The notes below the pieces were generated by a model. It did no database searches. It worked only from the letters and a program-made list of their open reading frames with translations, and was not told the origin of the DNA. Shown piece by piece: positions 955 through 34,963 of a DNA stretch of 64,000 nucleotides. The stretch is taken from the NCBI GenBank assembly GCA_028702495.1, contig JAQVOS010000001.1, positions 10,383-74,382 on the forward strand. Direction: 5' to 3'. The position numbers were made by a program, and so were the translations under genes. This DNA is from Bacilli bacterium. GTDB lineage: Bacteria; Bacillota_I; Bacilli_A; ML615J-28; CAG-698. Positions within the stretch are counted from its first letter, which is position 1; the number at the start of each line of letters is the position of its first letter.

Positions 955-1867
955 CGGGAATATTACCTCCTAAAATTTTAGAATTATAGGTGTTGATCAT
1001 ATTCAAATATTGCGTTAGTTGGGGTTTTATGTTAATACTTCTTGCATAAAAGATTTCACTTCGAGGAATGCTTAAAGCAATCGTTTCTTCGCCTAAACTT
1101 TGAAATAAAGGATATTTGGCAGGATCCAGTTTCACAAGAAGACTCGCGTAACTAGTAGGGTCTTCATTAAGCGCAATCACGTTATCATCAATATCTTCAA
1201 GAAGAGCAAGAATATCCTCATTCAACTCTTTTACAAAAATTCCAGCTTGAGGGATGAAGGCAATATCGTTTTCTAAAACAGTTTGAAGATTGATGATGTT
1301 TAATTCAATTCCCATTTTGTTTTCCAAGTTGGATAACACAGGTTCTGCACATAAAATGTAATCAACTGGTTGTAAACTCATGAACCGGTTGGTTACAACA
1401 TCATTGATGCTTGCTTCATAAACGATGGTTGTATTTACCTCTTGACTTGAAAGCGCTGCTTTTAAAATAATATCAGGAGTATTTCCCTCCCCATAAGAAG
1501 CCACGACTTTACCTTCTAGATCTTCTAGACTTGAAAGCGGGGTTTCTTTACGGCTAACAATATAAGAATTACCTGTCGTGAGGACGGCAGCAAAATGGTA
1601 CTCGGAAGCTCCATTCATATAAAGCTTTGCTGCCGCAGTGATAGGAGCCACAATGACATCATAATGATCTTGGACAAGCTCGCTTGTTAATACGTCAGGA
1701 CCCGATACAATCCGAAACTCTAGATCTTCGCGATCATATAACCCTCCTAAAGCGATGGAAGGAATACCCTCTGGAAACAGGATTGTTAAGGGGGACTTCG
1801 TGTTTTCCTTACAACCACTAACACTAATTGTTAACAAAATTAAGATTAAAACAAGTAACTTTTTCAT
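935..1867 (-). CDS. ABC transporter substrate-binding lipoprotein (NMT1/SsuA-like)
   Basis: N-terminal signal peptide with lipobox (LTISVSGC); size and periplasmic-binding-protein-like composition; operonic with permease. Confidence 0.6.
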   Translation of the reverse strand: MKKLLVLILILLTISVSGCKENTKSPLTILFPEGIPSIALGGLYDREDLEFRIVSGPDVLTSELVQDHYDVIVAPITAAAKLYMNGASEYHFAAVLTTGNSYIVSRKETPLSSLEDLEGKVVASYGEGNTPDIILKAALSSQEVNTTIVYEASINDVVTNRFMSLQPVDYILCAEPVLSNLENKMGIELNIINLQTVLENDIAFIPQAGIFVKELNEDILALLEDIDDNVIALNEDPTSYASLLVKLDPAKYPLFQSLGEETIALSIPRSEIFYARSINIKPQLTQYLNMINTYNSKILGGNIPDENFIQ

Positions 1868-1913
1868 AATAATACCTCTTTATAGGTTTATTTTACATGA
1901 AAATAGTAATTTT

Positions 1914-1935
1914 TATCGTAACATATGTTACGATA
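1914..1935. promoter_or_regulatory. Perfect 22-bp palindrome TATCGTAACATATGTTACGATA (core GTAAC-N4-GTTAC); candidate Crp/Fnr-family operator in the divergent intergenic region
   Basis: Read directly; same 14-bp core recurs at 1994-2007; geometry resembles FNR-type boxes (5-N4-5). Confidence 0.5.
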
Positions 1936-1960
1936 AAACGTTTTACTTTTCTTACCTACA

Positions 1961-1989
1961 TTGAATAATCAAGAGCTTTGTGCTATAAT
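1961..1989 (+). promoter_or_regulatory. Sigma-A-type promoter for the Crp/Fnr gene: TTGAAT-17bp-TGcTATAAT (extended -10)
   Basis: TTGAAT at 1961-1966, TATAAT at 1984-1989 with TGn at 1981-1983; 17-bp spacer. Confidence 0.55.
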
Positions 1990-1993
1990 TTTG

Positions 1994-2007
1994 GTAACAT
2001 ATGTTAC
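1994..2007. promoter_or_regulatory. Second copy of palindrome GTAACATATGTTAC, immediately downstream of the -10 box (predicted to overlap the transcription start of the Crp/Fnr gene)
   Basis: Read directly; centre-to-centre about 75 bp from first copy. Confidence 0.5.
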
Positions 2008-2019
2008 AAGGGGGATTTT

Positions 2020-2637
2020 ATGAATCCATTATTTGATATGATTGAAGCGAATTTTCCCAATGTTATCACTTATAAAACGTATGAACGCCAGGAAGTGATT
2101 TTTTTAGAACAAGCTTCTTGTAAAGCAGTTGGGTTTATTATAAAGGGGAAAATGCACATTCAAACATTTGGGTGTGGCGAAGATCCTTATATCATCCAAA
2201 CTTTAAATACGGGGGACACCTTTGGCGAAACCCTTCTATTTTCAAATGAAGCCACCTATCTCGGAGTCGGAATTGCGCTCGATAAAATCAAAATTGCTTA
2301 TGTGGGGCGAGGCGATTTACTTCGGATTATGCAAGAGTCTTCTCTCTTTTTAAGAAACTATCTTTTAGTAATGGCTGAAAAAAGCATCCTTCATCAGATG
2401 CGCCTGAAAGTCTTGCTACAAAAAACAATTCGTGATAAAATCCTATTTTCCCTCCATGAGCAAGCAAAAACCCAAGGTTCCCTGACGGTGCGAACACCGA
2501 CAAAAGAAGCTTGGGCAGCTTATCTAAATATTCCTCGTCCATCACTATCCCGTGAATTAATAGTAATGCGAGATGAAGGACTTCTAAAGTTGGACCGATT
2601 CTATGTGACGCTTCTAAAAGAAGTCAGTAACATTTAA
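2020..2637 (+). CDS. Crp/Fnr-family transcriptional regulator (cNMP-binding domain + C-terminal HTH)
   Basis: ATG at 2020 preceded by GGGGGA RBS; beta-roll effector-domain-like N-terminus, C-terminal HTH (…RPSLSRELIVMRDEGLL…); ORF-track N-terminal extension from 1978 lacks RBS. Confidence 0.7.
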   Translation: MNPLFDMIEANFPNVITYKTYERQEVIFLEQASCKAVGFIIKGKMHIQTFGCGEDPYIIQTLNTGDTFGETLLFSNEATYLGVGIALDKIKIAYVGRGDLLRIMQESSLFLRNYLLVMAEKSILHQMRLKVLLQKTIRDKILFSLHEQAKTQGSLTVRTPTKEAWAAYLNIPRPSLSRELIVMRDEGLLKLDRFYVTLLKEVSNI

Positions 2638-4349
2638 ATGGTAATGCTTGTTCTATATAGTTTTTCGTAATAGCCGCCTTGATGAACCAAATCTTGATGA
2701 CGACCTCTTTCTAAAATTCCATTTTGTCCTAAGACAATGATTTCATCAGCATTTTTAACCGTTGATAGACGATGGGCAATGGTGATGGTGGTGCGCCCAG
2801 CCGATAATTCTTCAAGAGATTGCTGAATCAGATTTTCTGTAATATTATCCAGAGATGAAGTCGCTTCATCGAGTATTAATATCCGTGGATTTTTTAAGAA
2901 TAAGCGAGCAATGGCAATGCGTTGCTTCTGTCCTCCTGAAAGTTTAATTCCGCGTTCTCCTACCAACGTATGATAGCCTTCATCTTGACTCATTACAAAG
3001 TCGTGGATGCGGGCTTTTTTTGCAGCCTCGATGATTTCTTCATCTGTGGCATCCACTTTGCCATATAAAATATTTTCACGAATGGTTCCATAAAATATAA
3101 TGACATCTTGTTGAACATGGCCAATGGCGCTGCGAAGATCATCTAAATCATATTCTTTCACATTCACTCCATCGACTAAAATGGCGCCTTCATTGACATC
3201 ATAGAAGCGAGGAATCAGTTTTGAAATGGTTGATTTCCCCACTCCTGTTTCTCCAACTAAAGCCACTTTTTGTCCGGCCTTAATTTTTAAATTAAAGTGA
3301 TTTAAGATATGAGTTGCTTCGCTTTGTTCATATTGAAAACTGACATTCTTAAATTCGATATCACCCTTAAAATTCGTACAATGCTGAGGATTCAAGGGGG
3401 AAACAATTTGAGAATCGATTTCCATCACCTGATAAAACTTTTCTACGCCTGAGAATCCATTTTGTAACTGTTCCATTGAATTGGTAATACGAGCAATCGG
3501 ACGAGTAAGGAAGTGAATGTAGAGGAAGAAGGTGGTTAGTTCAATGATGGTGATATCACCACTAGCGACAAAGAAACTTCCAAAAACAAGCGTAGCCACA
3601 TGGGTAAGATTCATAAAGAAATCATTCCCCGTCGAGTAAAGACCAATCTCACGGAATGTTGTGGTTCTCGCTTTTTTGAATTGCTCATTTATATTTTCAA
3701 ATTTTTCAATTTCCATCTCTTCATTGTTGAAAGCTTTTGTGAGACGAATCCCACTGAGACTACTCTCAGTGATGCTATTGAGTTCTCCTTGAGCAGTACG
3801 AGCCAAACGAAAGCCTTTCAACATTTTACTTCGTCTTGATAATGAATAAATAATCACAAAAGAAACAAAGACAAAAACAATTAAAGTAAGGAGCCAACTC
3901 GTATTTAGGAGAATGAAAAAACTTCCAATGAACATGACAATGGAAATAAAGATATCTTCAGGAACGTGGTGACTCATTTCTGATACATCATGAAGATAAG
4001 TAGTTAGATGCGTCATGAGTTCTCCTGTTTTCTTATCATCATAATACTGATAATCTAGGGATTGAAACTTCTTATATAAATCGCGTCTCATATCGCTTTC
4101 AAGTCGAATCCCCATGATATGTCCATAATATCCAATGATATAGCCTAGGAAGAACTTCAGTCCAAATAAGACAAGCAAAAAGCCCCCTAAAAGCAACACT
4201 GTTTTAGTATCCCCTACAAATTTATATAAGATCTCTTGTGTGACCTGAGGGAAGACGAGGTCAATCCCTGCAACAATCAAAGCACAAAACAAATCGAGGG
4301 TTAACAGTGCCCAATGGGGGCGATAGTAACGAATGAACTTTTTAATCAT
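2634..4349 (-). CDS. ABC exporter, fused permease/ATPase (MsbA/multidrug-like)
   Basis: N-terminal 6-TM domain, Walker A GETGVGKST, ABC signature LSGGQKQR, Walker B ILILDEATS. Confidence 0.85.
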   Translation of the reverse strand: MIKKFIRYYRPHWALLTLDLFCALIVAGIDLVFPQVTQEILYKFVGDTKTVLLLGGFLLVLFGLKFFLGYIIGYYGHIMGIRLESDMRRDLYKKFQSLDYQYYDDKKTGELMTHLTTYLHDVSEMSHHVPEDIFISIVMFIGSFFILLNTSWLLTLIVFVFVSFVIIYSLSRRSKMLKGFRLARTAQGELNSITESSLSGIRLTKAFNNEEMEIEKFENINEQFKKARTTTFREIGLYSTGNDFFMNLTHVATLVFGSFFVASGDITIIELTTFFLYIHFLTRPIARITNSMEQLQNGFSGVEKFYQVMEIDSQIVSPLNPQHCTNFKGDIEFKNVSFQYEQSEATHILNHFNLKIKAGQKVALVGETGVGKSTISKLIPRFYDVNEGAILVDGVNVKEYDLDDLRSAIGHVQQDVIIFYGTIRENILYGKVDATDEEIIEAAKKARIHDFVMSQDEGYHTLVGERGIKLSGGQKQRIAIARLFLKNPRILILDEATSSLDNITENLIQQSLEELSAGRTTITIAHRLSTVKNADEIIVLGQNGILERGRHQDLVHQGGYYEKLYRTSITI

Positions 4350-5110
4350 AATGAATCTCTTTCTCCTAAGTAATCAAAAATAGCGTCTATTAATTTCTGG
4401 TTATTGGTTGACAATAACATGAGATGTGTAATGTCATCAAATATTATCTTTTTCTTTTCAGGGCTTAAACAAAATTGGTACACTTCTTCAACTGAACCAC
4501 GTGGAACCAATTGATCCAGTTCTCCCCATAAGATGAGTGTGGGAATATTGTAAGGCTCAATGGATGAGGTGACTCGTTTAATGATTTTTCGAAAAGCTAA
4601 AAAGTATTTAGGAAGAGCGGTAACGAGAAAAGCTCTAGCTCCAAAATGAAGCGATTTTTTATCATCTTCAAAAACAAAACTTAGCTTTTTAGCAAATTTA
4701 TTTTCTTTTGAAGTTTCATGTTCCTTTTTTGCTTTTTTCAATCCTTTGAGAATGCGCCAATATATGGCTGCTTTCACGATGGGAGCTTCCAAGTTGAAAT
4801 ACTTATAAGCTGGAGCAAGTAAAACAAGACGATGGATGGGGTATTTTGATGCCAAATAAGCCCCTAACGCTCCTCCCATCGAATATCCAATAACATCAAT
4901 CGTTTGATATTTTTTTGCTAATTCTTGATAGGTTTTATCTAATAAAGCGAAGGTAGCTTCTTCAGTAAATTTTTCTTTACCAAACGCGATCCCGTGCCCA
5001 GGAAAACAAATTCGATGAACATAATCGTATTGTTTATTCAAGTCTTCAATGATGGGTTCAAAATCGTGTTTATCACTTAGAAATCCATGGAGAAGGAGAA
5101 TACATTTCAT
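4346..5110 (-). CDS. alpha/beta-fold hydrolase (esterase/lipase-like)
   Basis: Nucleophile elbow GYSMGG; start HGFLSDKHDF typical of the fold; 4-nt overlaps with both neighbours. Confidence 0.7.
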   Translation of the reverse strand: MKCILLLHGFLSDKHDFEPIIEDLNKQYDYVHRICFPGHGIAFGKEKFTEEATFALLDKTYQELAKKYQTIDVIGYSMGGALGAYLASKYPIHRLVLLAPAYKYFNLEAPIVKAAIYWRILKGLKKAKKEHETSKENKFAKKLSFVFEDDKKSLHFGARAFLVTALPKYFLAFRKIIKRVTSSIEPYNIPTLILWGELDQLVPRGSVEEVYQFCLSPEKKKIIFDDITHLMLLSTNNQKLIDAIFDYLGERDSL

Positions 5111-6036
5111 AGAGCTTCTTCTTTCACAGGTTCTGGTTTTTTGGTGAATAATTTAATGATGCGGTTCGGAATAAAACTGACAACATCCTTCATAACAACT
5201 GGAAGAGTTTGCATCGATTCTTTAATGGCTTCGCGACGAATGGCTGTTTTTGTTGCATCTTTTACATCAGAGAATAAATATCGACGTGTAATAAACCCTA
5301 TTCGAAGTGTAAGTAGAGCATTTGATATTCCTTGAAGAATAGACGATGCAATGGGTTTCATCAAAGGAATATCAGCGAAGAAATTCACTGTTGATTGAGG
5401 AAAGATATCATTAAAATCAAGTCCTTCTAATGTTTCAGCAACAAGAGCTGTTCCAACAACATTCAAGGATAGTTTTCCCAGCCGAGCATACGAAGGACGA
5501 AACCCACACTTCAAGACGATTTCTTTAATCATCTTCAAATTGACGGATAAAACGGTGAACATATCTAGTTTCCCATTTTGCGAAATGGCAGTTGAAATCA
5601 TGACGGTGGTTGCGTTACGAATAATGATGTTACGAATCTCTTTTTTAATGGCTGTATTAAAGACGTTGTTTAAAGCCACTCTTAATTCTTCTTTGTCCTT
5701 AAAACTATTATTGAGAGTTGTGGCTTCTTCTGTCGTTAAGACATTATTTTCGATGATATTTTTCGCCACACGTTTATAAACTTGAGTTCGTTTTTGATTG
5801 TTTTCTTCCATGGTGGTCGTAATGGAAAATGTTGGGGCGAAGAGTATGATACGAACGGGGTTAATAATTAAGAAATACACTAAGATGGTATAAAGTGCAT
5901 AAAAACCATACTCTACATATGGATGAAGAGTTCGTAGTTTTTCCCCAAGTGATATCGCTGAACTAATCATCATGAGAAGAACAATGATACCAACACCGAT
6001 TAAAATTAAAATCCAAAAACGATTGCGCTTATTCAT
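5107..6036 (-). CDS. YcjF/DUF697-family membrane protein
   Basis: Two N-terminal TM helices followed by a region resembling E. coli YcjF (…RNATTVMISTAISQNGKLDMFTVLSVNLKMIKEI… / …LTLRIGFIT…). Confidence 0.5.
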   Translation of the reverse strand: MNKRNRFWILILIGVGIIVLLMMISSAISLGEKLRTLHPYVEYGFYALYTILVYFLIINPVRIILFAPTFSITTTMEENNQKRTQVYKRVAKNIIENNVLTTEEATTLNNSFKDKEELRVALNNVFNTAIKKEIRNIIIRNATTVMISTAISQNGKLDMFTVLSVNLKMIKEIVLKCGFRPSYARLGKLSLNVVGTALVAETLEGLDFNDIFPQSTVNFFADIPLMKPIASSILQGISNALLTLRIGFITRRYLFSDVKDATKTAIRREAIKESMQTLPVVMKDVVSFIPNRIIKLFTKKPEPVKEEAL

Positions 6037-6045
6037 TTTGATCTC

Positions 6046-7671
6046 CTATTTTTTGCTATTTTTTTCCATCCAACCACTAATATCACTAGGATGCATTGGT
6101 CGTGCAAAGTAATACCCCTGTCCATAATCACATCCCATTTCAATAAGTGTATTAAGGATTTCCTTGGTTTCAATTCCTTCTGCTACGACTGCATATCCCA
6201 TATCATGGGCTAAGTCAATGATGGCTTTCACTAAGATTCTTGTATTGTTATTATTTACAATGTTCATGGTAAAACCACGATCAATTTTTATCTTTTTAAT
6301 TGGTAAATCACGAAGATACGCAAGGGATGAATACTCATTTCCAAAATCATCTAGTACGATGGATATTTTTTCAAGGGATAACGTTTTTAGCATGTTTTCT
6401 GCTGCTTGTTTGTTTAGCATTAGAGTGGATTCGGTAATCTCTACTTCAATCGCATAGTCTGGAAGAGCGGCCATTCTAATTTTTTCAACGATGGATTCAA
6501 TTAGGAGTGGCTCATATAAATTCCGCTGTGATATATTAACAGATATCACAAAATTGCTTCCTGTGAAATCATAAGTTTTGTAATCAGATATGACTTTCAT
6601 GCAAACCCATTCTGTGATTTGGTTAATGAGGCGTGTTTTTTCAGCGAGAGGTATAAACCCTCCTGGATAAAGGATGTTATTTTTATGTTGCCATCGTACT
6701 AAAGCTTCCATGCCTTGACAAGTATTTGTTTTCAAATCAACAATGGGTTGATATGTCATAAATAGTTGATTTTCTTTAATGGCTTGTGGTAGTTCCCCCA
6801 ATAATATAAAAGAACTTTGATCTTTTTCATGTGATTGATTATATATGGCATGTTTTAAAAAATGTTTTTTTGCATACATAGATGCAACATCGCTTTCATG
6901 AAAGCGATCCACAATATCATCTGGATTACCCGTTAAACTGACGCCAATAGAATAGTCAATATAAAGGGGAATGGTTCCACTCACAAGATTCATTTGTTCA
7001 AGATAAGCCATGAAAGGTTCAATCACGTGGTGGTATTCTTCGTGTGATAGTTCAATCCAAAAGCGTCGTTCATCAACAAAGACAGCATAAGCTTCGGGGC
7101 TTAGAAAGTTACAAATCAGTTGATGCATTTTTGCAAGAATGGCTCCATAAGCTTCATTTCCAATTAAGACAATTAATTCTTCATGATTATTAATTTGGAG
7201 CGTTAAAGCAACAAAAGGATTTGGATTATCGTTGTCTCGTTTTGCTTCTAAATAATAATTAACATTGGGAATGTTTGTTAAAACATCATGGGTATGATGT
7301 AAATGAAGGATTGCTAATTGCTTCTTCAGAAATAACAATAGATCCCCCATGGTGATTCCTATCAAAACAAAATAAAATGTTCGATATAATGAACTAGAAA
7401 ATTCTTCCCCATGACCTGGTAAAAGAACATACGTCATGAGGGGACCTATCAATAAGCCCGCAATAATTCCCGTAACACCAGCAACCCATGGACCCAAAAA
7501 TACAGCAGCAATTAACACTGTAAGATACATAGTATGTGCGAAAGCGCTTGGAATACCACCTGTAATATACACAAGAAAAGTGTTTAAAATAAGAGAAAAA
7601 GCAATGATTGCAATCGAGACGCGTTTGGCTTTTCGACCAGGATTCATAATAAACTTCAATATTTTGTTCAT
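6046..7671 (-). CDS. Membrane-anchored c-di-GMP phosphodiesterase: N-terminal TM domain, degenerate GGDEF-like middle domain, C-terminal EAL domain
   Basis: EALVRW motif and downstream EAL-domain blocks (…EITES…, …DDFGNEYSSLAYL…, …IKIDRGF…); no intact GG(D/E)EF motif in the middle domain. Confidence 0.8.
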   Translation of the reverse strand: MNKILKFIMNPGRKAKRVSIAIIAFSLILNTFLVYITGGIPSAFAHTMYLTVLIAAVFLGPWVAGVTGIIAGLLIGPLMTYVLLPGHGEEFSSSLYRTFYFVLIGITMGDLLLFLKKQLAILHLHHTHDVLTNIPNVNYYLEAKRDNDNPNPFVALTLQINNHEELIVLIGNEAYGAILAKMHQLICNFLSPEAYAVFVDERRFWIELSHEEYHHVIEPFMAYLEQMNLVSGTIPLYIDYSIGVSLTGNPDDIVDRFHESDVASMYAKKHFLKHAIYNQSHEKDQSSFILLGELPQAIKENQLFMTYQPIVDLKTNTCQGMEALVRWQHKNNILYPGGFIPLAEKTRLINQITEWVCMKVISDYKTYDFTGSNFVISVNISQRNLYEPLLIESIVEKIRMAALPDYAIEVEITESTLMLNKQAAENMLKTLSLEKISIVLDDFGNEYSSLAYLRDLPIKKIKIDRGFTMNIVNNNNTRILVKAIIDLAHDMGYAVVAEGIETKEILNTLIEMGCDYGQGYYFARPMHPSDISGWMEKNSKK

Positions 7672-7870
7672 ACTGTATAATCTCCTACTCCAAAAATGGA
7701 TTCTTGAGCGTATATCTTAATCTTATCATATCAAGAAATGCGCTTCTTGTCAATTCAAAACTATGCCTAATATATACTTTTTCATCAATCAATAGTCATA
7801 TAGAATTACAATTTTATTGTCGATTTCTTCGTAAGATGTCTCTTCATACAAACTTTTTATACACTGTCAT

Positions 7871-7898
7871 ATAAAAAGTAGGCCGTTGACGCCTACTT
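7871..7898 (-). terminator. Rho-independent terminator for lipoprotein gene (stem AAGTAGGC/GCCTACTT, U-run on minus strand)
   Basis: 8-bp stem, 7-nt loop, A-run 7871-7877 on plus strand (= T-run on minus). Confidence 0.55.
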
Positions 7899-7943
7899 GT
7901 GAAATGTTTTTATAATAATGGTATTGAATGAACTTTCATGAAC

Positions 7944-8816
7944 TTATTCAATGGAGAAATTTCTAATATAGATACCGATGGACTGAATATCAGGATCACT
8001 TAAAACACTAAAATACTGATTGATTTCTTCCATGGTACATATTTCATAGGTTATAATAAGAATATATACTCCAATAGAAGTGGTAATTCCTTCTTCTTCC
8101 ACCCCATATAAATCATATTTTTCTTGCATATAAGCATCACGCGTGTTGTTATCATACCCTTTAGGATCCATTAAGAGAACAACTTCGACATTCACAAAGG
8201 GATGAGAGAGCCTCTCTTCTACTTTAGTTATATCAGCTGGAAAGTTAAAATACTCAACGACTGCAACTTGAGTCGTTTCACCAACCACGGACTCTAGTCC
8301 TTTAATTAGATCATATTGAATAGCAAAGTAATACTCCCTTGGAGCATATAGACATATAGCTACTTCTGGTCTTTGCATATTTGCATGAACCGTGAGGATC
8401 CCATCTTCATGAAACAGGTGATGAATAACAACTTTGGTCCCCACAACGTGATCAAACTCAATGAAGAGAATTAAACCCTTTTTTTCAAAATAAGCTTCGT
8501 TATAAAAGGTGTTATCATATCCCGATTCAATAAATTCTTCATAGGATTCAAAGTGGATTAGGATGGGATAATCTATTCCTGGTTCAACCTGATGAGGTGA
8601 AGATTGAGCGAGTCGAGGATATGTCCCCATAGTAAAGGGAATCACTCCTTCCGTATCACTATGAACGAAATGTTCTTCTGAATCTATGGCCGTCTCTTCT
8701 TTTGAATATTGATTTTTATCATCATTGATAAGCGAATCTTGTGCCGGAAGTGTGCATCCTGTTAGTATTCCTAATGCAACGATAACCATCAATATTTTCC
8801 TAATTACTTGTTTCAT
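7944..8816 (-). CDS. Hypothetical lipoprotein
   Basis: Signal peptide with lipobox LTGC; no recognisable catalytic motif. Confidence 0.5.
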   Translation of the reverse strand: MKQVIRKILMVIVALGILTGCTLPAQDSLINDDKNQYSKEETAIDSEEHFVHSDTEGVIPFTMGTYPRLAQSSPHQVEPGIDYPILIHFESYEEFIESGYDNTFYNEAYFEKKGLILFIEFDHVVGTKVVIHHLFHEDGILTVHANMQRPEVAICLYAPREYYFAIQYDLIKGLESVVGETTQVAVVEYFNFPADITKVEERLSHPFVNVEVVLLMDPKGYDNNTRDAYMQEKYDLYGVEEEGITTSIGVYILIITYEICTMEEINQYFSVLSDPDIQSIGIYIRNFSIE

Positions 8817-8899
8817 CAGTCTAGCCTTCTTTCATTTGATAATACGAAGAAGACCTTTTGATTATTGGAAAAATGTTTAATGTTGTTGTTTTTTCATCT

Positions 8900-9682
8900 T
8901 CAATGAGTCGTTTCTTTAAAGAAGGCTTGTGTAAGAATTGGCAAAGTGATATCTTCTTTTACATTTTTAATAAATGTTGCCAATTCTTCTACATCAAAAT
9001 CTTGTAATGTTTTCCCCTTTTTTGAAGTTGCTGCCTTTGCATTACCCACATAATGATGAGGATAATTGGCATACCAACTAAGCCCTGTGAATAAGTTGGG
9101 AATGTGAGATAGACGCATTAAGGGCGTTACTTCTCCATCAGAGATCTCATTCATATGGATGAGATGTGGGTGATTCGCAAGAGAGATGCTGGTTTCGCAC
9201 TCACAAGCATGACCATGCCATTTCGTTGTCCTTACACTTTGATATAATTTGGTACGTGCTTCCGAACCTGGCTGATATAAATATAGCTGATAATCACGTT
9301 CTTTATCGAGTTGAGATTGGGCAAGGAATGTTAAAAAGGCGTTGTTGCCCCCATGGCCATTCACAAGAATGATTTTTTTGATACCATTACGACCCATCTC
9401 ATCAAGAAGCGATTGGACGAGTTCCATCAAAAGAGAACTTTTTATTGCAATGGTTCCTGGAAAACAGCGTGCTTCTAAAATCTGCCCGAAATAAAAGGGA
9501 GGAAAAACAAGAACCTCTTCTTTTTCACTGGCAAGTACCGCTAAGCGATGAACATTTAAAAAATCAGTTCCCAAAGGAAGATGATCTCCATGTTTTTCTA
9601 ATACTCCAAAGGTTAGAACACAAACAGGATTTCGTGTAACAACTTCATGAAATTGCTTTGATGTTAATTCTTCCCATTTCAT
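8900..9682 (-). CDS. Creatininase-family (creatinine amidohydrolase-like) metal-dependent amidase
   Basis: Family-typical blocks …LEKHGDHLPLGTD… and …VNGHGGN…; about 260 aa. Confidence 0.7.
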   Translation of the reverse strand: MKWEELTSKQFHEVVTRNPVCVLTFGVLEKHGDHLPLGTDFLNVHRLAVLASEKEEVLVFPPFYFGQILEARCFPGTIAIKSSLLMELVQSLLDEMGRNGIKKIILVNGHGGNNAFLTFLAQSQLDKERDYQLYLYQPGSEARTKLYQSVRTTKWHGHACECETSISLANHPHLIHMNEISDGEVTPLMRLSHIPNLFTGLSWYANYPHHYVGNAKAATSKKGKTLQDFDVEELATFIKNVKEDITLPILTQAFFKETTH

Positions 9683-9723
9683 ATATTATACTTCCTTTCA
9701 ATCAATTGATTCAATACAAAAAT

Positions 9724-10782
9724 TTATGAGTTAAGCAATATCTTTCTTACATAGTGTGAACTCATGCATTGTAATAGGCTTGCATAATCTAAAGAAAACG
9801 AAACAATGTCTCCGAGATGATATGTGTTGTCTTCTAATTGAATGATGAGATAATCACTATTTGACTCGAGCGATTTGATTGTCGAATCATGAGGTGTTAA
9901 ATGATTGTGATCAACATCTTGCTTTCCAATCGCAAGAATTGCACGATTCATTTCCCCACTGTTGCGAAGGATTGGCGTTTCGCCAAATGCATTTATCGAG
10001 AGGGTCCCAATCGGATGGGATGGTTTTCTTTGTATCTCCACAATCTCTGCTTCTAGTGTAAAAGCATCCTGAAACATGCCTGGAATCAAGTTACCAAAAG
10101 CTGTTTCTCGTCCCAAAAAAATCGCTTCACCAATGCGAAGATTATTAATTTGGCTAGGTAGATTATCAAGCATATAAAGGGTGGATGAATTCCCTCCTGA
10201 CACAAGATCAAGATGAATTTCAAATGCATTTTCAATTTTGTTTTTGATATCAACTAGGATTCCCATGTTCACTTGATCGGGAATAACTCCCTCTAGGCAA
10301 GTTAAATTTGTTCCGATTCCTTTTAAATGGATATTAGGGAGATGAAGAATGGCCTTAATAAGCGGCATATAATCTTCTTTATAAAACACGCCTTCACGTA
10401 AATCGCCCAAGTCAAACATGAGGATAACGTCATAATTTTTCTCTTGGCGGAATGCTTCTTGCGAAAGGGCTTCGATTGTCTTTATTTCCGATACCAAAGC
10501 AAGTGAAGAATACTTTATAACATCTTTGATTTCACTCAACATCGGAATTCTTGTGAGAGCTTTTGGTATCGAAAATTCTTGAAATTTTTTTAAATTGTCC
10601 ATCCGGGAATCAGCTAAATAGGTAAAACCTAGTGGGGCTAAAGCCCCTAGAACTTCTTTATATCCTGCTAACACTTTTCCCACCAAAAAGATTGAAGATA
10701 CGCCGTGACGTTTACACAATGATAAAATTGTTTGTGCGTTTGATATCAATTTAGGTAAAGATATCATGATTCGTGGAAACAT
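9724..10782 (-). CDS. orr: Ornithine racemase (PLP-dependent, alanine-racemase fold)
   Basis: Start ATG (MFPRIMISLPKL…) with GGGAGGA RBS embedded in the 3' end of the upstream gene; alanine-racemase-like size (352 aa); last gene of the ornithine cluster as in Clostridium sticklandii. Confidence 0.65.
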   Translation of the reverse strand: MFPRIMISLPKLISNAQTILSLCKRHGVSSIFLVGKVLAGYKEVLGALAPLGFTYLADSRMDNLKKFQEFSIPKALTRIPMLSEIKDVIKYSSLALVSEIKTIEALSQEAFRQEKNYDVILMFDLGDLREGVFYKEDYMPLIKAILHLPNIHLKGIGTNLTCLEGVIPDQVNMGILVDIKNKIENAFEIHLDLVSGGNSSTLYMLDNLPSQINNLRIGEAIFLGRETAFGNLIPGMFQDAFTLEAEIVEIQRKPSHPIGTLSINAFGETPILRNSGEMNRAILAIGKQDVDHNHLTPHDSTIKSLESNSDYLIIQLEDNTYHLGDIVSFSLDYASLLQCMSSHYVRKILLNS

Positions 10783-10784
10783 TC

Positions 10785-12146
10785 CTATTCCTCCCATCCA
10801 ATACTCTTTAACATCAAGATAAGACTTGCTTTGGGATTGACTTTCGCAAGCACACCGCATGAAGCCAAAATATAGTCTTGATCAATCCAAATGGTGGTTC
10901 CTTCTTCTGGTTTTAGGCTGCTCCCATCTTTTTGCATTAAATAGTTTTTAATAAGACTCATCCGATTAGGAAGTTGTGTGAGAGCCCCTCCTGTTGCAAC
11001 AAAGTTTTTAATTCTACGTAAATCTTTGCCTTCGATGAGATTGGAGTAATGCTTTCCTTGATAAGAGTAACGCATAAATCCTGCATGACGACGAATCCCT
11101 ACCTTTAGAGCCTCGTAAGTAAGACGCTCCGTCAAAGCAATTTGATTTTGATCGGGAATCGGCAAATAGTTTTCTAATAAACTATTTAATTCTTTTTGAT
11201 CGATATGAAGTGCTCGACAAAGGACATCTTCTCCAATGAGTTTTACCAAATGATATCGATTAATATATACTCCCAAATCCCCTTCAACCGTTCTTTTCGC
11301 AAAGGGTTCTGGTGTAATTGAAACATTGGTATCGGTATTTTTGGCTTCACCAATCGAAACGACATCTGTAGTAGCTCCTCCGATATCACAACAAATAATT
11401 TCTCCAATTTGATCGTGTAATAAGCGACAAGCTTCATACACAGCTCCTGGTGTCGGAATAATGATTCCATCTACCATTTGTCGGATGTGACTCATTCCTT
11501 TTGCTTCGGTAATATGTTCCTCAAAAATTCGATGAATGATTTGACGAACACCTTCAATATTAATTTCATCAATTTTAGGATATACATTCTCCCCAATCAA
11601 TAAATGGGATTCTTCTCCTGCCAATCGAAATGCTTCCCGAACGGCGATATGATTTACACAATTTCCCGCATAGAGAACAGGTATTCCTAATTTTAAATTT
11701 GCGATGCGTTTTGCGTTTTCTAAGGCTGTCTCATTTTCACCATAATCAACTCCACCCGCAATCATAATGATGTTTAATTGGAGCTTTTTGATTTCTTCGA
11801 GCTCCGAATCGTTCAATATCCCTGAGGTGACCATTTTAACATTTGCCCCAGCTCCTAAAGCAGCTTCCTTCGCAGCTTTGACGGTCATGTCATAGACAAG
11901 ACCATGAACACTCATTTTAAGTCCTCCAGCAGCAGAGGAAGAAGCTAGAACAAGACGTGCTTCTATTTTGTTTTTAGTTTTAATTTCATAATCTAGAATC
12001 GCATTTTGAAGCCCAATCCGAACATCTTCGATGGTTGTTGGGGCTATACCCTGACCTAAAAAAATTGGATTATGATCAAGATGATCAAAAACATTAACGG
12101 TTGTTGTCGTACTTCCAATTTCTGCAATCAAACAATCGACTTTCAT
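10785..12146 (-). CDS. MutL/GlmL-like protein (glutamate-mutase accessory/reactivase-like; actin/hexokinase-fold ATPase) of the ornithine aminomutase cluster
   Basis: 453 aa, ATGA overlap with oraE; position between oraE and orr matches the C. sticklandii cluster. Confidence 0.55.
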   Translation of the reverse strand: MKVDCLIAEIGSTTTTVNVFDHLDHNPIFLGQGIAPTTIEDVRIGLQNAILDYEIKTKNKIEARLVLASSSAAGGLKMSVHGLVYDMTVKAAKEAALGAGANVKMVTSGILNDSELEEIKKLQLNIIMIAGGVDYGENETALENAKRIANLKLGIPVLYAGNCVNHIAVREAFRLAGEESHLLIGENVYPKIDEINIEGVRQIIHRIFEEHITEAKGMSHIRQMVDGIIIPTPGAVYEACRLLHDQIGEIICCDIGGATTDVVSIGEAKNTDTNVSITPEPFAKRTVEGDLGVYINRYHLVKLIGEDVLCRALHIDQKELNSLLENYLPIPDQNQIALTERLTYEALKVGIRRHAGFMRYSYQGKHYSNLIEGKDLRRIKNFVATGGALTQLPNRMSLIKNYLMQKDGSSLKPEEGTTIWIDQDYILASCGVLAKVNPKASLILMLKSIGWEE

Positions 12147-14326
12147 AAAACTTCTTCCATTTTTTTCATTAAGAAAGTCGCAACATGGGCTCCTTTGGTT
12201 CCACGACCAAAACCAGCGTCGACTCCTTGCTTAATGGCAAGGTCATGAGTCACTTGGGTTCCACCCACAACGAAAATCAAACTTTTACGAACCCCTCGTT
12301 CAATGGCATACTCATGTAGTTTCTTCATATTCAAGTAGTGAACATCATTATGCGAAATAATGGTTGACATGAGAATGGCTTGAGATTTGGTTTCAATGGC
12401 AGCATCAATGAATTTTTGAATGGGAACAGATGTTCCAAGATATTCTACTTCAATTCCATATTTTTCGATACCACCATGTTTGATATCGATGATTTCTCTT
12501 AAGCCAACAGAATGCTCATCTTCTCCTGCGGTACCAGCAACAATCTTACAATGGTGTGTTTTAAAAAAACTTGTTAACTCTTCATCACTTGCAACATAGG
12601 GTTCTTCACGAAGCGTGAGGGTTGATGTATCTATACTAAAACTCACACGTCCTTTGATTTGAATCCGCGTTCCTTCGGATGGATGAAGGATTTCTTTATG
12701 AATAATTTCAACATCAAGCAAGTTCATTTTCTTTCCAATTTCAAGACTTGCTGCTTCTGCTAGTCTTAAACTGGTTGGAAGTGTGATATCAACGACCACA
12801 ATTCCATCGCCACACCACTGGACTTCTGGTATAATCTCGGAAGTGTTGCGATAGGGAGCCACTTCTTCAAGCCGATGATGAACATTATCCTCATCGAGTT
12901 CATCGATGAATATAATCTTATTGGGGTCTTCAAAAGTAGAACCCCCAATTAAATCCGAAGGATTCTTGACGCCATATAGTTCATAATGATTGACCCCAAA
13001 ATGAGCGGTAACAGGGGCTAAATAATCTGGATCACGTTTATAAATGGTATTTGCACCCACGCCGCTCTGTTCACGTCTTACGATGCCATCCCCATTTCTT
13101 TCAGGATAAAATCCTGAATCCACGAAGAACCCTGCTTCAACAGCCGCAAAGTATCCACCCGCTTCAAGAAGTTCTTCTAAAAAGAGAACCGCTCTTTCTT
13201 TTAATTCGCGAACACGAATCTTCATGATGCCTTCATGACGAACTTCAACCAACTCCTTTAATCCATCAAGACCTGCAAATGCTTGTTTTGCGGTATCACA
13301 TGCTTCAATATTGTACATATGCCATGGAACATTTCGTCCCTCATCAGGCGTTATCGTCGATTGAATATCTGCAGATGTTAGGGTAGAAATAAGAAGATTC
13401 ATGACATGGGTCACGGTTGCTTCACGAGTTGAAGACTCCATGTATTTTGTATTCATTTGAGCACGAATTTTAAATGCATCAAAAAACTCTCTTAATGCCA
13501 CCGCATAAGGTAAGTTAATTCGTAAATCAGGTGCAGGAGGTGCAATCGGTGGCACTGAAGACAGGGCTATTAAATCAGATTTCATGCCAACTTTTAATGA
13601 GAATGCGCAATTTATCGCATGCTGAACGAGAAGTTCAGGCATGACTTTCCATGCAATCTTGGCGGTAGCATTCGCATTATGGGCTCCATCAATCTGAAGC
13701 ATATTTGCCCACGCCATAATGTGTTTTGACTCTGCAGCATCAACAAATGAACGAACCATATTAATATTTCGATATAAGACATTATATTGAGGGTCCTGGT
13801 GAGCTCCATTAACGCCTTCTTCAGCAAACATGACAGCAATCTCAGGACCTGCAACACCCGATACATAGGAGTGATAATTGATCGGACGACCCACTTCATC
13901 TTCAATCAAATCGAGTGCTTTTCTCTGCGCTCGGACTTGTTTTCTTGTAATGGGAATACCTCCAACTCCTTGCGGTGTTCCTTCAATGAGTCCGTCAAAA
14001 TGAGATTGGCCTGCGGTACGAATGACCATCATATGATCGGCTCCATGCCACGCTGCCATCCTCATGCGTCGAATATCATCTTCGAAACGTCCTGAAGCAA
14101 TTTCGGTTGTAATGGTTTGAATGGGCTGAGGATCAATGGACCCTACATATTTGGCTGCAGGAAGAGGGATACTTTCCTTTAAATTTTTTGAAGTGTTGTA
14201 ATAAATATAATCATTTAATTTTTGATGTTTGACCGCTTCACGCCATACCCACCCTCTTCTTCGGGGGCGATAGTTCTCAAGATTGGCGAGAATCTTTTCA
14301 ATATTAATGGGGGTATCTTTATTCAT
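12143..14326 (-). CDS. oraE: D-ornithine 4,5-aminomutase subunit E (PLP- and adenosylcobalamin-binding)
   Basis: 727 aa from ATG at 14326 (GGAGGT RBS); C-terminal Rossmann-type B12-binding domain (…LIFVVGGTQVTHD…); upstream small oraS. Confidence 0.75.
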   Translation of the reverse strand: MNKDTPINIEKILANLENYRPRRRGWVWREAVKHQKLNDYIYYNTSKNLKESIPLPAAKYVGSIDPQPIQTITTEIASGRFEDDIRRMRMAAWHGADHMMVIRTAGQSHFDGLIEGTPQGVGGIPITRKQVRAQRKALDLIEDEVGRPINYHSYVSGVAGPEIAVMFAEEGVNGAHQDPQYNVLYRNINMVRSFVDAAESKHIMAWANMLQIDGAHNANATAKIAWKVMPELLVQHAINCAFSLKVGMKSDLIALSSVPPIAPPAPDLRINLPYAVALREFFDAFKIRAQMNTKYMESSTREATVTHVMNLLISTLTSADIQSTITPDEGRNVPWHMYNIEACDTAKQAFAGLDGLKELVEVRHEGIMKIRVRELKERAVLFLEELLEAGGYFAAVEAGFFVDSGFYPERNGDGIVRREQSGVGANTIYKRDPDYLAPVTAHFGVNHYELYGVKNPSDLIGGSTFEDPNKIIFIDELDEDNVHHRLEEVAPYRNTSEIIPEVQWCGDGIVVVDITLPTSLRLAEAASLEIGKKMNLLDVEIIHKEILHPSEGTRIQIKGRVSFSIDTSTLTLREEPYVASDEELTSFFKTHHCKIVAGTAGEDEHSVGLREIIDIKHGGIEKYGIEVEYLGTSVPIQKFIDAAIETKSQAILMSTIISHNDVHYLNMKKLHEYAIERGVRKSLIFVVGGTQVTHDLAIKQGVDAGFGRGTKGAHVATFLMKKMEEVL

Positions 14327-14693
14327 GATGACCTCCAAAACTTTTGATAACTTTATCCCAACCTTCTCCATTGATAAGAGCAAGCCCCGCTTCGCGAATC
14401 GGTAGGGAGGCTAGTTGATGATATCGAAAAACAACATGACCGGCTCCCTTTCCCATCAGTTCATGAGCCATCACTTTTTCAACGAGGGCTTTGGCCTCAA
14501 GGGAGGAGAATCCCATTCGTAGTAAAACACTGCGTTCGAGAGAAGGACTGGTATGTGTTTTTGCAAGATCAACTAAGGGTTCTACTGCTTGATTGGCTAA
14601 GCACCAAAAAGTGGCCTTTAATTCTTCATCGGATAAAGAGGCCAGATGTTTACGTCTTGCCTCAAAATCATCGCTTCTAGCTATTATTTTCAT
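14319..14693 (-). CDS. oraS: D-ornithine 4,5-aminomutase subunit S
   Basis: 124-aa protein; ATG at 14693 overlaps ortB stop (ATGA); size/position as OraS. Confidence 0.65.
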   Translation of the reverse strand: MKIIARSDDFEARRKHLASLSDEELKATFWCLANQAVEPLVDLAKTHTSPSLERSVLLRMGFSSLEAKALVEKVMAHELMGKGAGHVVFRYHQLASLPIREAGLALINGEGWDKVIKSFGGHHE

Positions 14694-16099
14694 ACCTTCC
14701 ACCTCAATTCTTTTTCTTGTAATAGCGAGAAGAGTTCTACTTCGCTTACTTTTAATTCTTCTTGTAAATACACTAAATCATCGCTTGTTAAAACAATCTC
14801 TTTTGTCACATTCGCTCCTAAATATGAGAGTCGTACACGATGTAAATCTACATCTTGAACATGAATAAGACTTGGATGTTCTGGAAGAATGATAGACTGT
14901 CCTGGAACTTCTGTTCTAGGATTTCCAAATTCAAGTTTAATTCCTTGTTTTCTAGCGAATGATAACTGGGCTTGATGATGTTTTCCTGCACCCGTATATT
15001 CGGTTTCTTGAACGACGATTACTTGATCTTGACGCAGTTCTTGAGCCAAAGAGAAAGCACAAGCGAGTGAGACATTCCCTGCAGGACCTCGTTCAATCCC
15101 TTCTAAAAGGGCCAAGGTTTCTGTCATAAAGAACACTTCTCCTTGAGTCATCGTAACATAACGATCAATATAACGTAGGGGACGTGCAGCAGAACGTGGC
15201 ACATCACTTCGATCAGGTTGCATCATAAAAGGAAGACCAAAACCCGTGTGGCCTGTTGTAAAGGATTTTCGATTAAAATCATAGTCGCTTGCCATATGTA
15301 AGCCAACAAGATTGACACTAGCACCCACAATCTCGACAGGGTCTGTCGTTGCTCGTTTGATTCCACGTGCGGTTCCGGTTAGGTTTCCCCCTCCAGCATT
15401 GGTACATACAACCATATCGGGTGAACGCCCGATTTGCTTCATACAATCTTCGATAACTTCTATTCCTAAAGTTTCAATTCCTAGGATTCCATAGGGGGTG
15501 TATAAAGAAGCATTAAAATAACCAGTCTCTTCTAATAATTGTAAGAATACATAAAAAAGTTCGGGACCAACCGATAGCTGAACGACCTCAGCTCCATACG
15601 CTTCACATGCTCGTGCTTTTTCTATAATTTCTGGTTGACCAATGCCGCGAGAATCATAGCACTCCTGAACAATGATGCAGGGAAGATTTAGTTTAGCAGC
15701 TTGCGAAGCCACTGCTGCTCCATAGTTTCCACTTGTAGCAGCAATCACACCAGGATAACCAAGCCGTTTTGCATGGTAACAGGAGATGGCAGCACGTCTG
15801 GCTTTAAAACTTCCCGAGTCATTGAGGGCTTCATCTTTGATAAAGATTCTAGCACCTTTCCCAGGTTGACTACAACGTCTTGCTAAAGCGGTGATATTTT
15901 TTAGTTCTTTTAGGGGAGTTTTTCCAACTCCATGCTCTAATTGAATTTTTTTCACCATGTTAATCGGATATCCATGGTCCTTCATTAAGGATTCGTATTG
16001 AAATCCAATTTGAGATCTTTCATACTGAGAATAATCAATCCCAATAGCTTTTTTCATAATCTCGTTCTTACGAGCCATGACACGATCGTATTTATTCAT
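14690..16099 (-). CDS. ortB: 2-amino-4-ketopentanoate thiolase beta subunit (PLP-dependent, Trp-synthase-beta fold)
   Basis: 469 aa with PLP-fold motifs; follows ortA. Confidence 0.7.
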   Translation of the reverse strand: MNKYDRVMARKNEIMKKAIGIDYSQYERSQIGFQYESLMKDHGYPINMVKKIQLEHGVGKTPLKELKNITALARRCSQPGKGARIFIKDEALNDSGSFKARRAAISCYHAKRLGYPGVIAATSGNYGAAVASQAAKLNLPCIIVQECYDSRGIGQPEIIEKARACEAYGAEVVQLSVGPELFYVFLQLLEETGYFNASLYTPYGILGIETLGIEVIEDCMKQIGRSPDMVVCTNAGGGNLTGTARGIKRATTDPVEIVGASVNLVGLHMASDYDFNRKSFTTGHTGFGLPFMMQPDRSDVPRSAARPLRYIDRYVTMTQGEVFFMTETLALLEGIERGPAGNVSLACAFSLAQELRQDQVIVVQETEYTGAGKHHQAQLSFARKQGIKLEFGNPRTEVPGQSIILPEHPSLIHVQDVDLHRVRLSYLGANVTKEIVLTSDDLVYLQEELKVSEVELFSLLQEKELRWKV

Positions 16100-16379
16100 G
16101 AGAAGACCTCACAAGCGTTTCAATGCGTAAAAGTTCAGGAACAAATTCACCATAACTATGACGATATGTTGGATTGACTTCAATCAATTTACCTTCTTCT
16201 AAACGATGCGTTTTGGTTTTGATATGAACCCAATCAAACATCTCTGCATCTTCTAAAAGGGTTCCTTTGACCCACATTTTAAGAGGAGTCTTTTTCGTAT
16301 CTTCGGGTATATGAGAACTTCGCTCTTGAGGCTCTAAAACAATGCGCTCAATGAGAACCCAACTTCCTTTTTGAATCAT
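16092..16379 (-). CDS. ortA: 2-amino-4-ketopentanoate thiolase alpha subunit
   Basis: 95 aa from ATG at 16379 (MIQKGSW…), ATGA overlap with ord stop, GAGGAAAAG RBS. Confidence 0.6.
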   Translation of the reverse strand: MIQKGSWVLIERIVLEPQERSSHIPEDTKKTPLKMWVKGTLLEDAEMFDWVHIKTKTHRLEEGKLIEVNPTYRHSYGEFVPELLRIETLVRSSHE

Positions 16380-19346: not shown

Positions 19347-19355
19347 TTCCTCAAT

Positions 19356-20658: not shown

Positions 20659-20696
20659 AAAATAAAAGGGATAGAAAGTAAAATTACTTTCTATCC
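20659..20696 (-). terminator. Rho-independent terminator after crtO-like gene (GGATAGAAAGTA/TACTTTCTATCC stem, U-run on minus strand)
   Basis: 12-bp perfect stem, 4-nt loop, followed on the minus strand by TTTTATTTT. Confidence 0.65.
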
Positions 20697-22306: not shown

Positions 22307-22310
22307 ATCA

Positions 22311-31098: not shown

Positions 31099-31177
31099 CT
31101 CCTAAATAAATGATAACCAATTATAGCATATAAAACCATTGTTTGCAAACTGTAATTCATGAAAAAAAGGTGATTTC

Positions 31178-33015: not shown

Positions 33016-33154
33016 ACTTCTTCTCCGTTTTGATTATTATAAACGAATTTATTGATTTATACAATGATTATATCAAAAAAGGTCCCCAAGTGAAGGAATA
33101 CCTCTTTACTAGAGAGCCCAAACCGCAAAGGACCTTTTTTTATAACCACTACAT

Positions 33155-34139: not shown

Positions 34140-34169
34140 TTTAATACCTCCTCAAATAAACTAGTATTT

Positions 34170-34946: not shown

Positions 34947-34963
34947 AAAAACTCCCTCTCTTC

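Follow-up and report, generated by a model that had tools for sequence, protein, structure and literature searches.

A probable clade-specific operon of EAL phosphodiesterase, DUF697, esterase and ABC exporter genes in an Acholeplasmatales-related bacterium

Does the tight packing of four genes, encoding a membrane phosphodiesterase for cyclic di-GMP (c-di-GMP), a DUF697 membrane protein, an alpha/beta-hydrolase and an ATP-binding cassette (ABC) exporter, denote a dedicated functional machine, or does it reflect the history of the genome that carries them? The question is raised by positions 2634-7671 of a 64,000-nucleotide stretch of contig JAQVOS010000001.1 (hereafter the window), whose host is an Acholeplasmatales-related uncultured Bacilli bacterium. 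A first-pass annotation had proposed that the genes constitute a c-di-GMP-controlled secretion or modification module. We favour, with moderate confidence, the reading that they form a real four-gene operon, specific to one clade, which accreted on a conserved origin-proximal backbone and does not amount to a dedicated machine. Nothing that we found supports control of the exporter by c-di-GMP.

Were the cluster a functional unit, it would provide a handle on DUF697/YcjF, a widespread family of membrane proteins without a known activity, and on the outputs of c-di-GMP signalling in the Acholeplasma lineage. On the evidence, it appears to be a lineage-specific operon of well-known families, whose adjacency comes from descent together with local insertions, and its value is mainly that of a negative result. 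The by-products of the analysis are a set of DUF697 relatives in 219 GTDB species, with no YcjX nearby and usually placed after radC, and the recognition of the exporter gene as a backbone gene.

Layout and distribution of the cluster

The interval 2634-7671 is made up of four open reading frames (ORFs), all on the minus strand. In the order of transcription, these are the EAL gene (gene 1, 6046-7671, 541 aa), whose product combines a transmembrane (TM) module, a degenerate GGDEF domain and an EAL domain; the DUF697 gene (gene 2, 5107-6036, 309 aa); the gene for a cytoplasmic alpha/beta-hydrolase or esterase, here ABH (gene 3, 4346-5110, 254 aa); and the gene for ABC571, a type IV (ABCB-like) ABC half-transporter of 571 aa (gene 4, 2634-4349). 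The TAG stop codon of the EAL gene is followed by 9 bp, GAGATCAAA (6037-6045, read from the sequence), and then by the ATG of the DUF697 gene, and a Shine-Dalgarno motif, AGGAG, overlaps that stop. The DUF697/esterase and esterase/ABC571 junctions are ATGA overlaps of stop and start codons, at 5110-5107 and 4349-4346, respectively. The layout, the gap, both overlaps and their coordinates are thus as the first-pass annotation had given them. Since four-base ATGA overlaps are commonplace among bacterial operons, the junctions are real but unremarkable by themselves.

The intergenic region 5' of the EAL gene measures 272 bp and contains a sigma-70-like promoter, TTGACA-17-(TG)TATGAT (7753-7725, minus strand), an 11/12 match with an extended TG and the best such site within 1800-9000. 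The promoter-like site lies just downstream of a terminator-like hairpin (7898-7876, minus strand; an 8-bp stem with 4 GC pairs and a T-run), which closes the upstream lipoprotein gene (7944-8816) and delimits the transcription unit on its 5' side. A terminator scan inside the four genes returned weak, chance-level sites only, none of them convincing. The operon architecture proposed earlier therefore holds, with one promoter ahead, tight junctions and unconvincing internal terminators; the four genes are probably arranged as one operon and co-transcribed, and the arrangement possibly also allows translational coupling. The GC content of the cluster (0.34-0.39) is in line with that of its flanks, with no compositional anomaly. 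Plus-strand ORFs that run antisense to the operon, for example 3600-3839, 5087-5335 and 6164-6457, are presumed to be spurious, and a repeat search over 1800-8100 gave chance-level short matches only, with the exception of the operator palindromes described below.

Neighbourhoods were sampled from four independent anchors, DUF697, EAL, esterase and ABC571, amounting to ~130 related loci (numbered with the prefix L). The complete cluster is confined to four related lineages, namely the window with L081, L001 with L090 and L093, L082, and L092. Its junctions are tight in all four, with EAL-DUF697 spacings of 9, 6, -14 and -23 bp, a DUF697-ABH overlap of -4 bp throughout and ABH-ABC spacings of -4, -4, +2 and -8 bp. 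Conservation of the four-gene synteny, suggested earlier as a check on the proposed module, largely failed outside these lineages, each gene being found without the others in many relatives.

The anchors tell this in different ways. A profile of 20 DUF697 orthologs recovered relatives in 219 GTDB species representatives, the best 80 loci of which (47-81% identity) were kept. Among these 80, the EAL gene is adjacent in L001 alone, the esterase gene lies downstream in L001 and L002, and an ABC571 ortholog (67-73% identity) stands beside DUF697 or one gene off in L002, L003, L011, L022 and L066; all three partners are missing from the vicinity in 74. A RadC-like gene is directly upstream of DUF697 in 43 of the 80, where the neighbour names, RadC-like included, were read from representative sequences, with no hidden Markov model (HMM) run. 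The prevailing arrangement, seen in Acholeplasmataceae, is valS-folC-radC-DUF697 with either rplU-prp-rpmA-obg or a BMP-lipoprotein nucleoside ABC importer next in line.

The full-length EAL family comprises ~45 clusters down to 30% identity, from metagenome-assembled genomes (MAGs) of Bacilli, Izemoplasmataceae and Acholeplasmataceae. Three of the seven EAL orthologs examined are linked to partners: L081 (EAL 91% identity) has EAL-DUF697, L082 (55%) has the full four-gene cluster with upstream genes as in the window, and L085 (47%) has EAL-ABH-ABC571, DUF697 missing. The other four (L083/84, L086, L088 and L089; 53-42%) are found in unrelated neighbourhoods, which read hut-EAL-MazG, GGDEF-EAL, TMEM164-EAL-NUDIX and ABC_tran/UPF0014-EAL-Glt_symporter. 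A metagenome scan with the esterase gave ~30 full-length loci. These include the four-gene clusters of L090 (identities of 59% for EAL, 81% for DUF697, 67% for ABH and 86% for ABC) and L092 (43%, 64%, 52% and 74% in the same order), together with ABH-ABC571 pairs lacking EAL and DUF697 in L094, L096, L101 and L113; some 20 of the 30 have neither partner. Finally, three of the four ABC571-anchored loci are partnerless within the order gidA-gidB-parA-mscS-DUF951-ABC571-...-SpoIIE, and the fourth, L129, has an esterase gene upstream. Overall, genes 2 and 4 are widely conserved in this taxonomic order, each normally in its own conserved context, and genes 1 and 3 are patchy and occur in many different contexts.

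The window itself offers a view of how such a cluster could have arisen. Its segment from 27.5 to 37.5 kb carries gidA, gidB, parA, mscS, DUF554 and an ABC596/ABC593 exporter pair (at 27.5-31.1 kb) that is orthologous (48-80% identity) to the pair directly preceding DUF697 in L004, L014, L027, L065 and L087. In L085, a pair of the ABC596/593 type precedes trxB and the EAL gene. The ~20 kb that separate ABC593 from DUF697 in the window are occupied mostly by metabolic genes, in the order trxB, two CrtN-like oxidases with a family-2 glycosyltransferase (GT2), arcABC, an ornithine-fermentation set, a creatininase-family gene, a lipoprotein gene and, last, the EAL gene. In the simplest history, an origin-proximal backbone, inherited vertically, would have carried two conserved membrane-protein genes, DUF697 and ABC571, and the esterase gene, the EAL gene and the metabolic block would then have been inserted in a subclade, whereupon one promoter would tie all four genes by co-expression. 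We considered whether the whole cluster had been acquired horizontally in one piece and rejected this, given its normal GC content and flanking genes that are syntenic with those of relatives.

The four gene products

The first-pass assignment of gene 1 as a membrane EAL phosphodiesterase is borne out by Pfam and by its TM helices. The EAL domain (6097-6795, minus strand; aa 293-525) scores 232.8 bits against PF00563, for which the gathering threshold (GA) is 31.3, and carries the EALxR, N, ExxE, DDFG, KxD, EGxE and QG motifs, read as EALVRW (322), SVNIS, EVEITES, DDFG (441), KIKID, AEGIET and GQG. These catalytic and metal-binding motifs align with those of 4hjf and 8arv and are conserved across 50 full-length family members (496-589 aa); matches to solved EAL domains include 4hjf (156.7 bits), DosP (125 bits over GGDEF and EAL) and Lmo0131 (122.7 bits). 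Missing catalytic residues had been named beforehand as a finding that would speak against the module, and the alignment shows every one of the motifs to be present. As judged from these motifs, the active site is intact and holds the residues for c-di-GMP hydrolysis. For loop 6, canonically DFG(T/A)GYSS, the window protein and its close clade have DDFGNEYSS; farther family members carry DDFGTGYSS.

The degenerate GGDEF domain (6865-7293, minus strand; aa 127-269) reaches 21.8 bits, below its GA of 23.8. When aligned with canonical GGDEF-EAL proteins, it has DERRF at the GG(D/E)EF position, and its Mg-binding Asp positions are replaced. Because of the DERRF motif and the loss of the upstream metal-binding Asp, gene 1 cannot encode a cyclase; it has neither a GGDEF score above threshold nor an intact motif, the marks of a diguanylate cyclase. 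The N-terminal membrane module (7312-7671, minus strand; aa 1-120), with ~4 TM helices by hydropathy, distantly resembles the ECF S-component, 5TMR-LYT and DUF4118 modules. The window protein matches the Pfam 5TMR-LYT and ECF S-component models weakly (15.6 bits); its orthologs P0154 and P0158 pass the GA for ECF-ribofla_trS, and P0154 also that for 5TM-5TMR_LYT. The phosphodiesterase would hydrolyse c-di-GMP to pGpG under the control of this ECF-S/5TMR-LYT-like module, and the dead GGDEF domain would serve as a linker or an allosteric domain. A separate observation concerns L086, where a 309-aa GGDEF protein of diguanylate cyclase type (4880-5809; 97.7 bits, above threshold) is encoded directly upstream of the EAL ortholog (43% identity).

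Gene 2 had been named YcjF/DUF697, and the two halves of that name fare differently. The DUF697 part is upheld by the HMM check (PF05128, 47.7 bits against a GA of 27.7, residues 116-258). The YcjF part is too strong, the TIGR01620 (YcjF) score of 25.5 bits being far from the family cut-off of 160; pairwise phmmer found no match between the gene 2 protein and E. coli YcjF, and tblastn gave weak C-terminal matches only (E >=0.05). Its two TM helices lie at the N-terminus, and the rest of the protein is all-helical. The reported lack of a YcjX-type GTPase partner is confirmed: tblastn with E. coli YcjX found no homologue in the window and 127 related loci (1.39 Mb; best E = 0.32), and no Pfam DUF463 match was obtained among the large window ORFs scanned (39 ORFs in all), which leaves room for a copy elsewhere in the genome. 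DUF697 may be pictured as a membrane protein that acts independently of YcjX. Its relatives across the sampled loci present a conserved membrane protein in a housekeeping context, with no YcjX nearby; the cases directly behind radC (43 of the 80, as given above) come from the range L021-L080, for example 7001-7894 in L035 and 7001-7903 in L075, and in L021 and L023 a gene resembling an M50/SpoIVFB-type protease stands between radC and DUF697. The radC-DUF697 position corresponds roughly to the mreBCD-minCD-spoIVF site in Bacillus.

The alpha/beta-hydrolase assignment of gene 3 is secured by its Pfam scores (Hydrolase_4, PF12146, 63.3 bits against 27; Abhydrolase_1, 63.0 bits) and by an intact triad of Ser77 (in GYSMGG), Asp199 and His229 that is invariant across five ABH orthologs. 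Its nearest solved relatives are bacterial monoacylglycerol lipases (MGL), Est30 and S. aureus FphI, and an MGL-like esterase of this kind would cleave membrane-toxic acyl esters.

Gene 4 likewise proves to be the ABC exporter that it was taken for. ABC571 combines a six-helix ABC_membrane domain (PF00664, 155.4 bits) with one nucleotide-binding domain (ABC_tran, PF00005, 111.5 bits) whose ATP-binding motifs are complete, with Walker A GETGVGKST, signature LSGGQ and Walker B ILILDEATS, and presumably works as a homodimer. It is similar along its full length to Sav1866 (335 bits), TM288 and MsbA, the top scores being ABCB1 and ABCB4, and it falls under every NCBIfam equivalog cut-off (MsbA TIGR02203, 416.9 against 602; NF008381, 356.8 against 867). 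Such a Sav1866/MsbA-like transporter would flip or export amphiphiles, and esterase and exporter together may handle one class of amphipathic esters or lipids. Since ABC571 is an origin-proximal backbone gene conserved at no less than 62% identity in more than 100 protein clusters, a housekeeping role, for example as a lipid flippase, is suggested rather than that of an accessory drug pump.

Two observations on ABC571 orthologs elsewhere may be recorded here. In L130-L132 (gene at 4001-5728 in each), which are more distant relatives, orthologs of 64-66% identity come directly after gidA-gidB-parA-mscS-DUF951, a context to be set beside the region of the window (27549-37466) that holds the gidA/gidB/parA/mscS-type backbone genes. 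L011 and L066 have the gene order ANT(6)-ABC571-DUF697, in which an ANT(6)-type streptomycin adenylyltransferase gene (4366-5208 in L011, 1357-2214 in L066; Pfam Adenyl_transf, E = 1.7e-90) runs 8 bp into the ABC571 ortholog.

Weighing the alternatives

Several points weigh against the reading of a clade-specific operon accreted by descent and insertion. Gene order and overlapping junctions outlast considerable divergence, as the identities in L092 attest, and the EAL gene of L085 is still beside ABH-ABC571 though DUF697 is missing; both the order and the linkage could reflect selection for co-expression and not inheritance alone. All neighbourhoods were collected by starting from one of the four genes and came from draft MAG contigs, which biases the counts and leaves partners elsewhere in a genome invisible. 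Further, the substrate link between esterase and exporter is purely inferred, and the loop 6 variant DDFGNEYSS leaves the predicted EAL activity unproven.

The alternative that survives best is that the esterase and ABC571 are a two-gene unit for detoxification or lipid turnover, with the other two genes merely co-transcribed. We regard it as somewhat unlikely as an account of the locus, and it is compatible with the accreted operon that we favour. ABH-ABC571 pairs spaced by -8 to +2 bp occur at 11 loci (the window, L002, L082, L085, L090, L092, L094, L096, L101, L113 and L129), and this is the sole tight accessory pair that recurs where DUF697 and EAL are absent. The nearest relatives of the two proteins, monoacylglycerol lipases, Est30 and FphI on one side and Sav1866, TM288, MsbA and ABCB1/ABCB4 on the other, fit such a unit, as does the coupling (-8 bp) of ABC571 to the streptomycin adenylyltransferase, a resistance-type partner, in L011 and L066. 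Against it, ~20 of the 30 ABH orthologs lack ABC571 and three of the four ABC571-anchored loci lack ABH, and the conservation of ABC571 on the backbone fits a housekeeping role that is independent of the esterase.

A second alternative, which we judge unlikely, treats the EAL and esterase genes as passengers and takes DUF697 to be an accessory to, or a partner of, this clade's ABC exporters, so that the unit of interest would be exporter plus DUF697. DUF697 adjoins type IV exporters of two kinds in the 'Bacilli bacterium' clade that stands closest to the window: the gene follows a pair of the ABC596/593 type at -17 (L014), -14 (L027), -8 (L065) and +11 bp (L087), or at 75 bp in L004, where a second ABC exporter pair lies 28 bp downstream, and it stands 11-14 bp after ABC571 in L011, L022 and L066 and 11 bp before it in L003. 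It also comes 40-62 bp after genes for an ABC-ATPase (237 aa) and a 540-aa multi-TM protein in L009, L012, L013 and L015, and 81 bp after the TM gene only in L005. However, because all these cases belong to a single clade and a single syntenic origin-proximal backbone, the adjacency is explained by shared ancestry; it would, moreover, be likely to arise by chance, as five or more genes for ABC exporters are present in the 64-kb window. Those of the 80 loci that come from Acholeplasmataceae have DUF697 after radC instead, at 100-200 bp from rplU or the ABC importer operon, and the three ABC571-anchored loci without partners have no DUF697 gene within 4 kb.

The c-di-GMP-controlled module of the first-pass annotation fares worse, and we consider it very unlikely. 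On this view, the phosphodiesterase would set a local c-di-GMP level that gates the exporter and/or DUF697 and the esterase, with action on the exported lipid or peptide. In its favour are the tight or overlapping junctions in all four cluster-bearing lineages, the catalytic residues kept across the 50 EAL family members, and the adjacency of EAL to ABH-ABC571 in L085 despite the lack of DUF697; the survival of the order at 43% EAL identity, and of the linkage in L085, leads us to allow it a small probability still. However, the cluster is linked neither to a c-di-GMP effector domain or riboswitch nor to a diguanylate cyclase, and the proposal is left unsupported. In family scans the partner proteins matched none of the known c-di-GMP receptor domains, PilZ and GGDEF included, and Pfam scans of the 39 large window ORFs no GGDEF or PilZ; phmmer with six GGDEF-containing queries matched the EAL gene alone in the 64-kb window. 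A search against Rfam for a c-di-GMP riboswitch or other RNA returned nothing above the gathering thresholds over the whole window and, in the promoter region 7500-8100, nothing at E <=1. EAL orthologs of at most 53% identity (L083/84, L086, L088 and L089) live in unrelated neighbourhoods, and DUF697 and ABC571 are kept across many relatives with no EAL gene beside them. Moreover, an EAL enzyme has no need of genetic linkage to its targets, since its substrate messenger diffuses. As for the wider setting, c-di-GMP signalling is already known in Acholeplasma, A. laidlawii encoding 14 GGDEF/EAL proteins (PMC2408644).

To a broader version, in which the four products would be one membrane-homeostasis unit of a small Acholeplasmatales-like clade that senses, signals through c-di-GMP or pGpG and removes lipids, we attach equally little credence. 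The TM module of the phosphodiesterase would respond to a lipid of the membrane or to some amphipathic ligand, and ABC571, DUF697 or the flanking Crp/Fnr-family regulator would detect the shift in c-di-GMP or pGpG that follows. Remodelling or expulsion of the unwanted lipid would then fall to the esterase and the exporter, and DUF697 would act without its canonical NTPase YcjX. If true, DUF697 would gain its first functional context, and an ABC exporter under c-di-GMP regulation would be added for a monoderm or wall-less lineage.

Flanking genes and comparison with known systems

The operon is bounded at its 3' end by a convergent gene for a Crp/Fnr-family regulator (1978-2637, plus strand), which lies outside it, overlaps the ABC571 gene by 4 bp at the 3' end and is also present in L090, L082 and L087. 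Its true start is probably the ATG at 2020 and not the TTG at 1978. Two perfect copies of a 14-bp palindrome, GTAACATATGTTAC, lie 76 bp apart (1918-1931 and 1994-2007) in the divergent region between this gene and genes for an NMT1-like lipoprotein and an ABC importer. The window has no further perfect copies, and with up to 3 mismatches 11 sites are found against 2.9 expected. The palindrome recurs in L082 (13445-13458) and L087 (10326-10339), where it precedes the Crp ortholog by 13-19 bp, and it is probably the operator of the regulator. A tie between the operon and this regulator was considered and discarded, as the palindrome is found twice upstream of the regulator gene and is absent from the EAL promoter. 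In L082, an insertion sequence element (11098-12671; rve integrase and helix-turn-helix transposase ORFs) lies between the ABC571 ortholog and the Crp/Fnr gene.

On the other side, positions 8900-20585 (minus strand) form a contiguous catabolic block of arginine-to-ornithine-to-Stickland type. All on the minus strand, it comprises arginine deiminase (19356-20585), ornithine transcarbamylase (OTCase; 18345-19346), carbamate kinase (17416-18348), 2,4-diaminopentanoate dehydrogenase (16376-17419), a pyridoxal phosphate (PLP) enzyme (14690-16099), a B12-dependent ornithine/lysine aminomutase (12143-14383), a MutL-like reactivase (10785-12146), a racemase-fold protein (9724-10860) and a creatininase-family protein (8900-9682). 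The part from the aminomutase to the creatininase-family gene is kept in L082, and L081 shows the MutL-like and racemase-fold genes. Beyond it, at 20691-25708 (minus strand), two amine-oxidase/phytoene-desaturase-family genes (517 and 614 aa), a family-2 glycosyltransferase gene (369 aa) and a 169-aa ORF resemble a C30 carotenoid-glycoside (CrtN/CrtP/CrtQ-like) cluster, here in an Acholeplasma-like genome. Further away, the gene at 38337-41615 (minus strand) encodes a 1092-aa protein with a purple-acid-phosphatase N-terminal domain, a metallophosphatase domain and a type I dockerin, the last of which is unexpected in this Acholeplasma-like lineage.

How, then, does the cluster compare with systems that are understood? 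To our knowledge, the LapD system is the sole well-known precedent for c-di-GMP combined with ABC export. In the LapD-LapG-LapEBC system of Pseudomonas, a c-di-GMP receptor controls an adhesin secreted by an ABC-type type I secretion system (T1SS); LapD has a degenerate, c-di-GMP-binding EAL domain with periplasmic and HAMP domains, and requires the LapG protease, a membrane fusion protein (MFP) and an outer-membrane channel. The likeness lies in an inner-membrane GGDEF-EAL protein, its GGDEF degenerate, that is genetically associated with an ABC exporter. However, the EAL domain of gene 1 is predicted to be catalytically intact, the protein has no HAMP or periplasmic domain, and scans of the window revealed no genes for a LapG protease, a C39 protein, an MFP or an outer-membrane protein. 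The analogy was rejected on this domain content and on an NF045673 score of 65.1 bits against a cut-off of 1020.

Gene 1 is closer to the phosphodiesterases that join a degenerate GGDEF domain to an active EAL domain, such as PdeA/CC3396 of C. crescentus and DosP of E. coli; Lmo0131 of Listeria offers a further EAL domain for comparison. It shares with them a degenerate GGDEF ahead of an EAL domain in which every catalytic motif is kept, but its sensor is the ~4-TM ECF-S/5TMR-LYT-like module and not a PAS, GAF, MASE or haem domain, and the loop 6 of its clade is a further departure. The YcjX-YcjF system of E. coli pairs a DUF463 P-loop NTPase with a DUF697 inner-membrane protein, belongs to the sigma-32 regulon and is often encoded near psp genes. 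Gene 2 is also a helical membrane protein with a Pfam DUF697 match above the gathering score, but the two TM helices of YcjF are at residues 99-121 and 214-234, whereas those of gene 2 are at the extreme N-terminus, and YcjX was not found around it in the window and the 127 loci. In proteobacteria, almost all ycjF genes adjoin ycjX (PMC3041696).

The other two products have their counterparts among well-characterized enzymes and transporters. With MGL of Bacillus sp. H257, Est30 and FphI, the esterase shares a length of ~250 aa, the GxSMGG nucleophile elbow and the Ser-Asp-His triad (matches to E = 7e-13), but identity is low, the matches lie mostly over the N-terminal half of ABH, and its Lys-rich lid region (aa 105-170) is specific to the ABH family. 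ABC571 has the same homodimer-type half-transporter architecture as Sav1866, BmrA, LmrA and MsbA, and differs from them in being a conserved origin-proximal backbone gene of Acholeplasmatales-like genomes.

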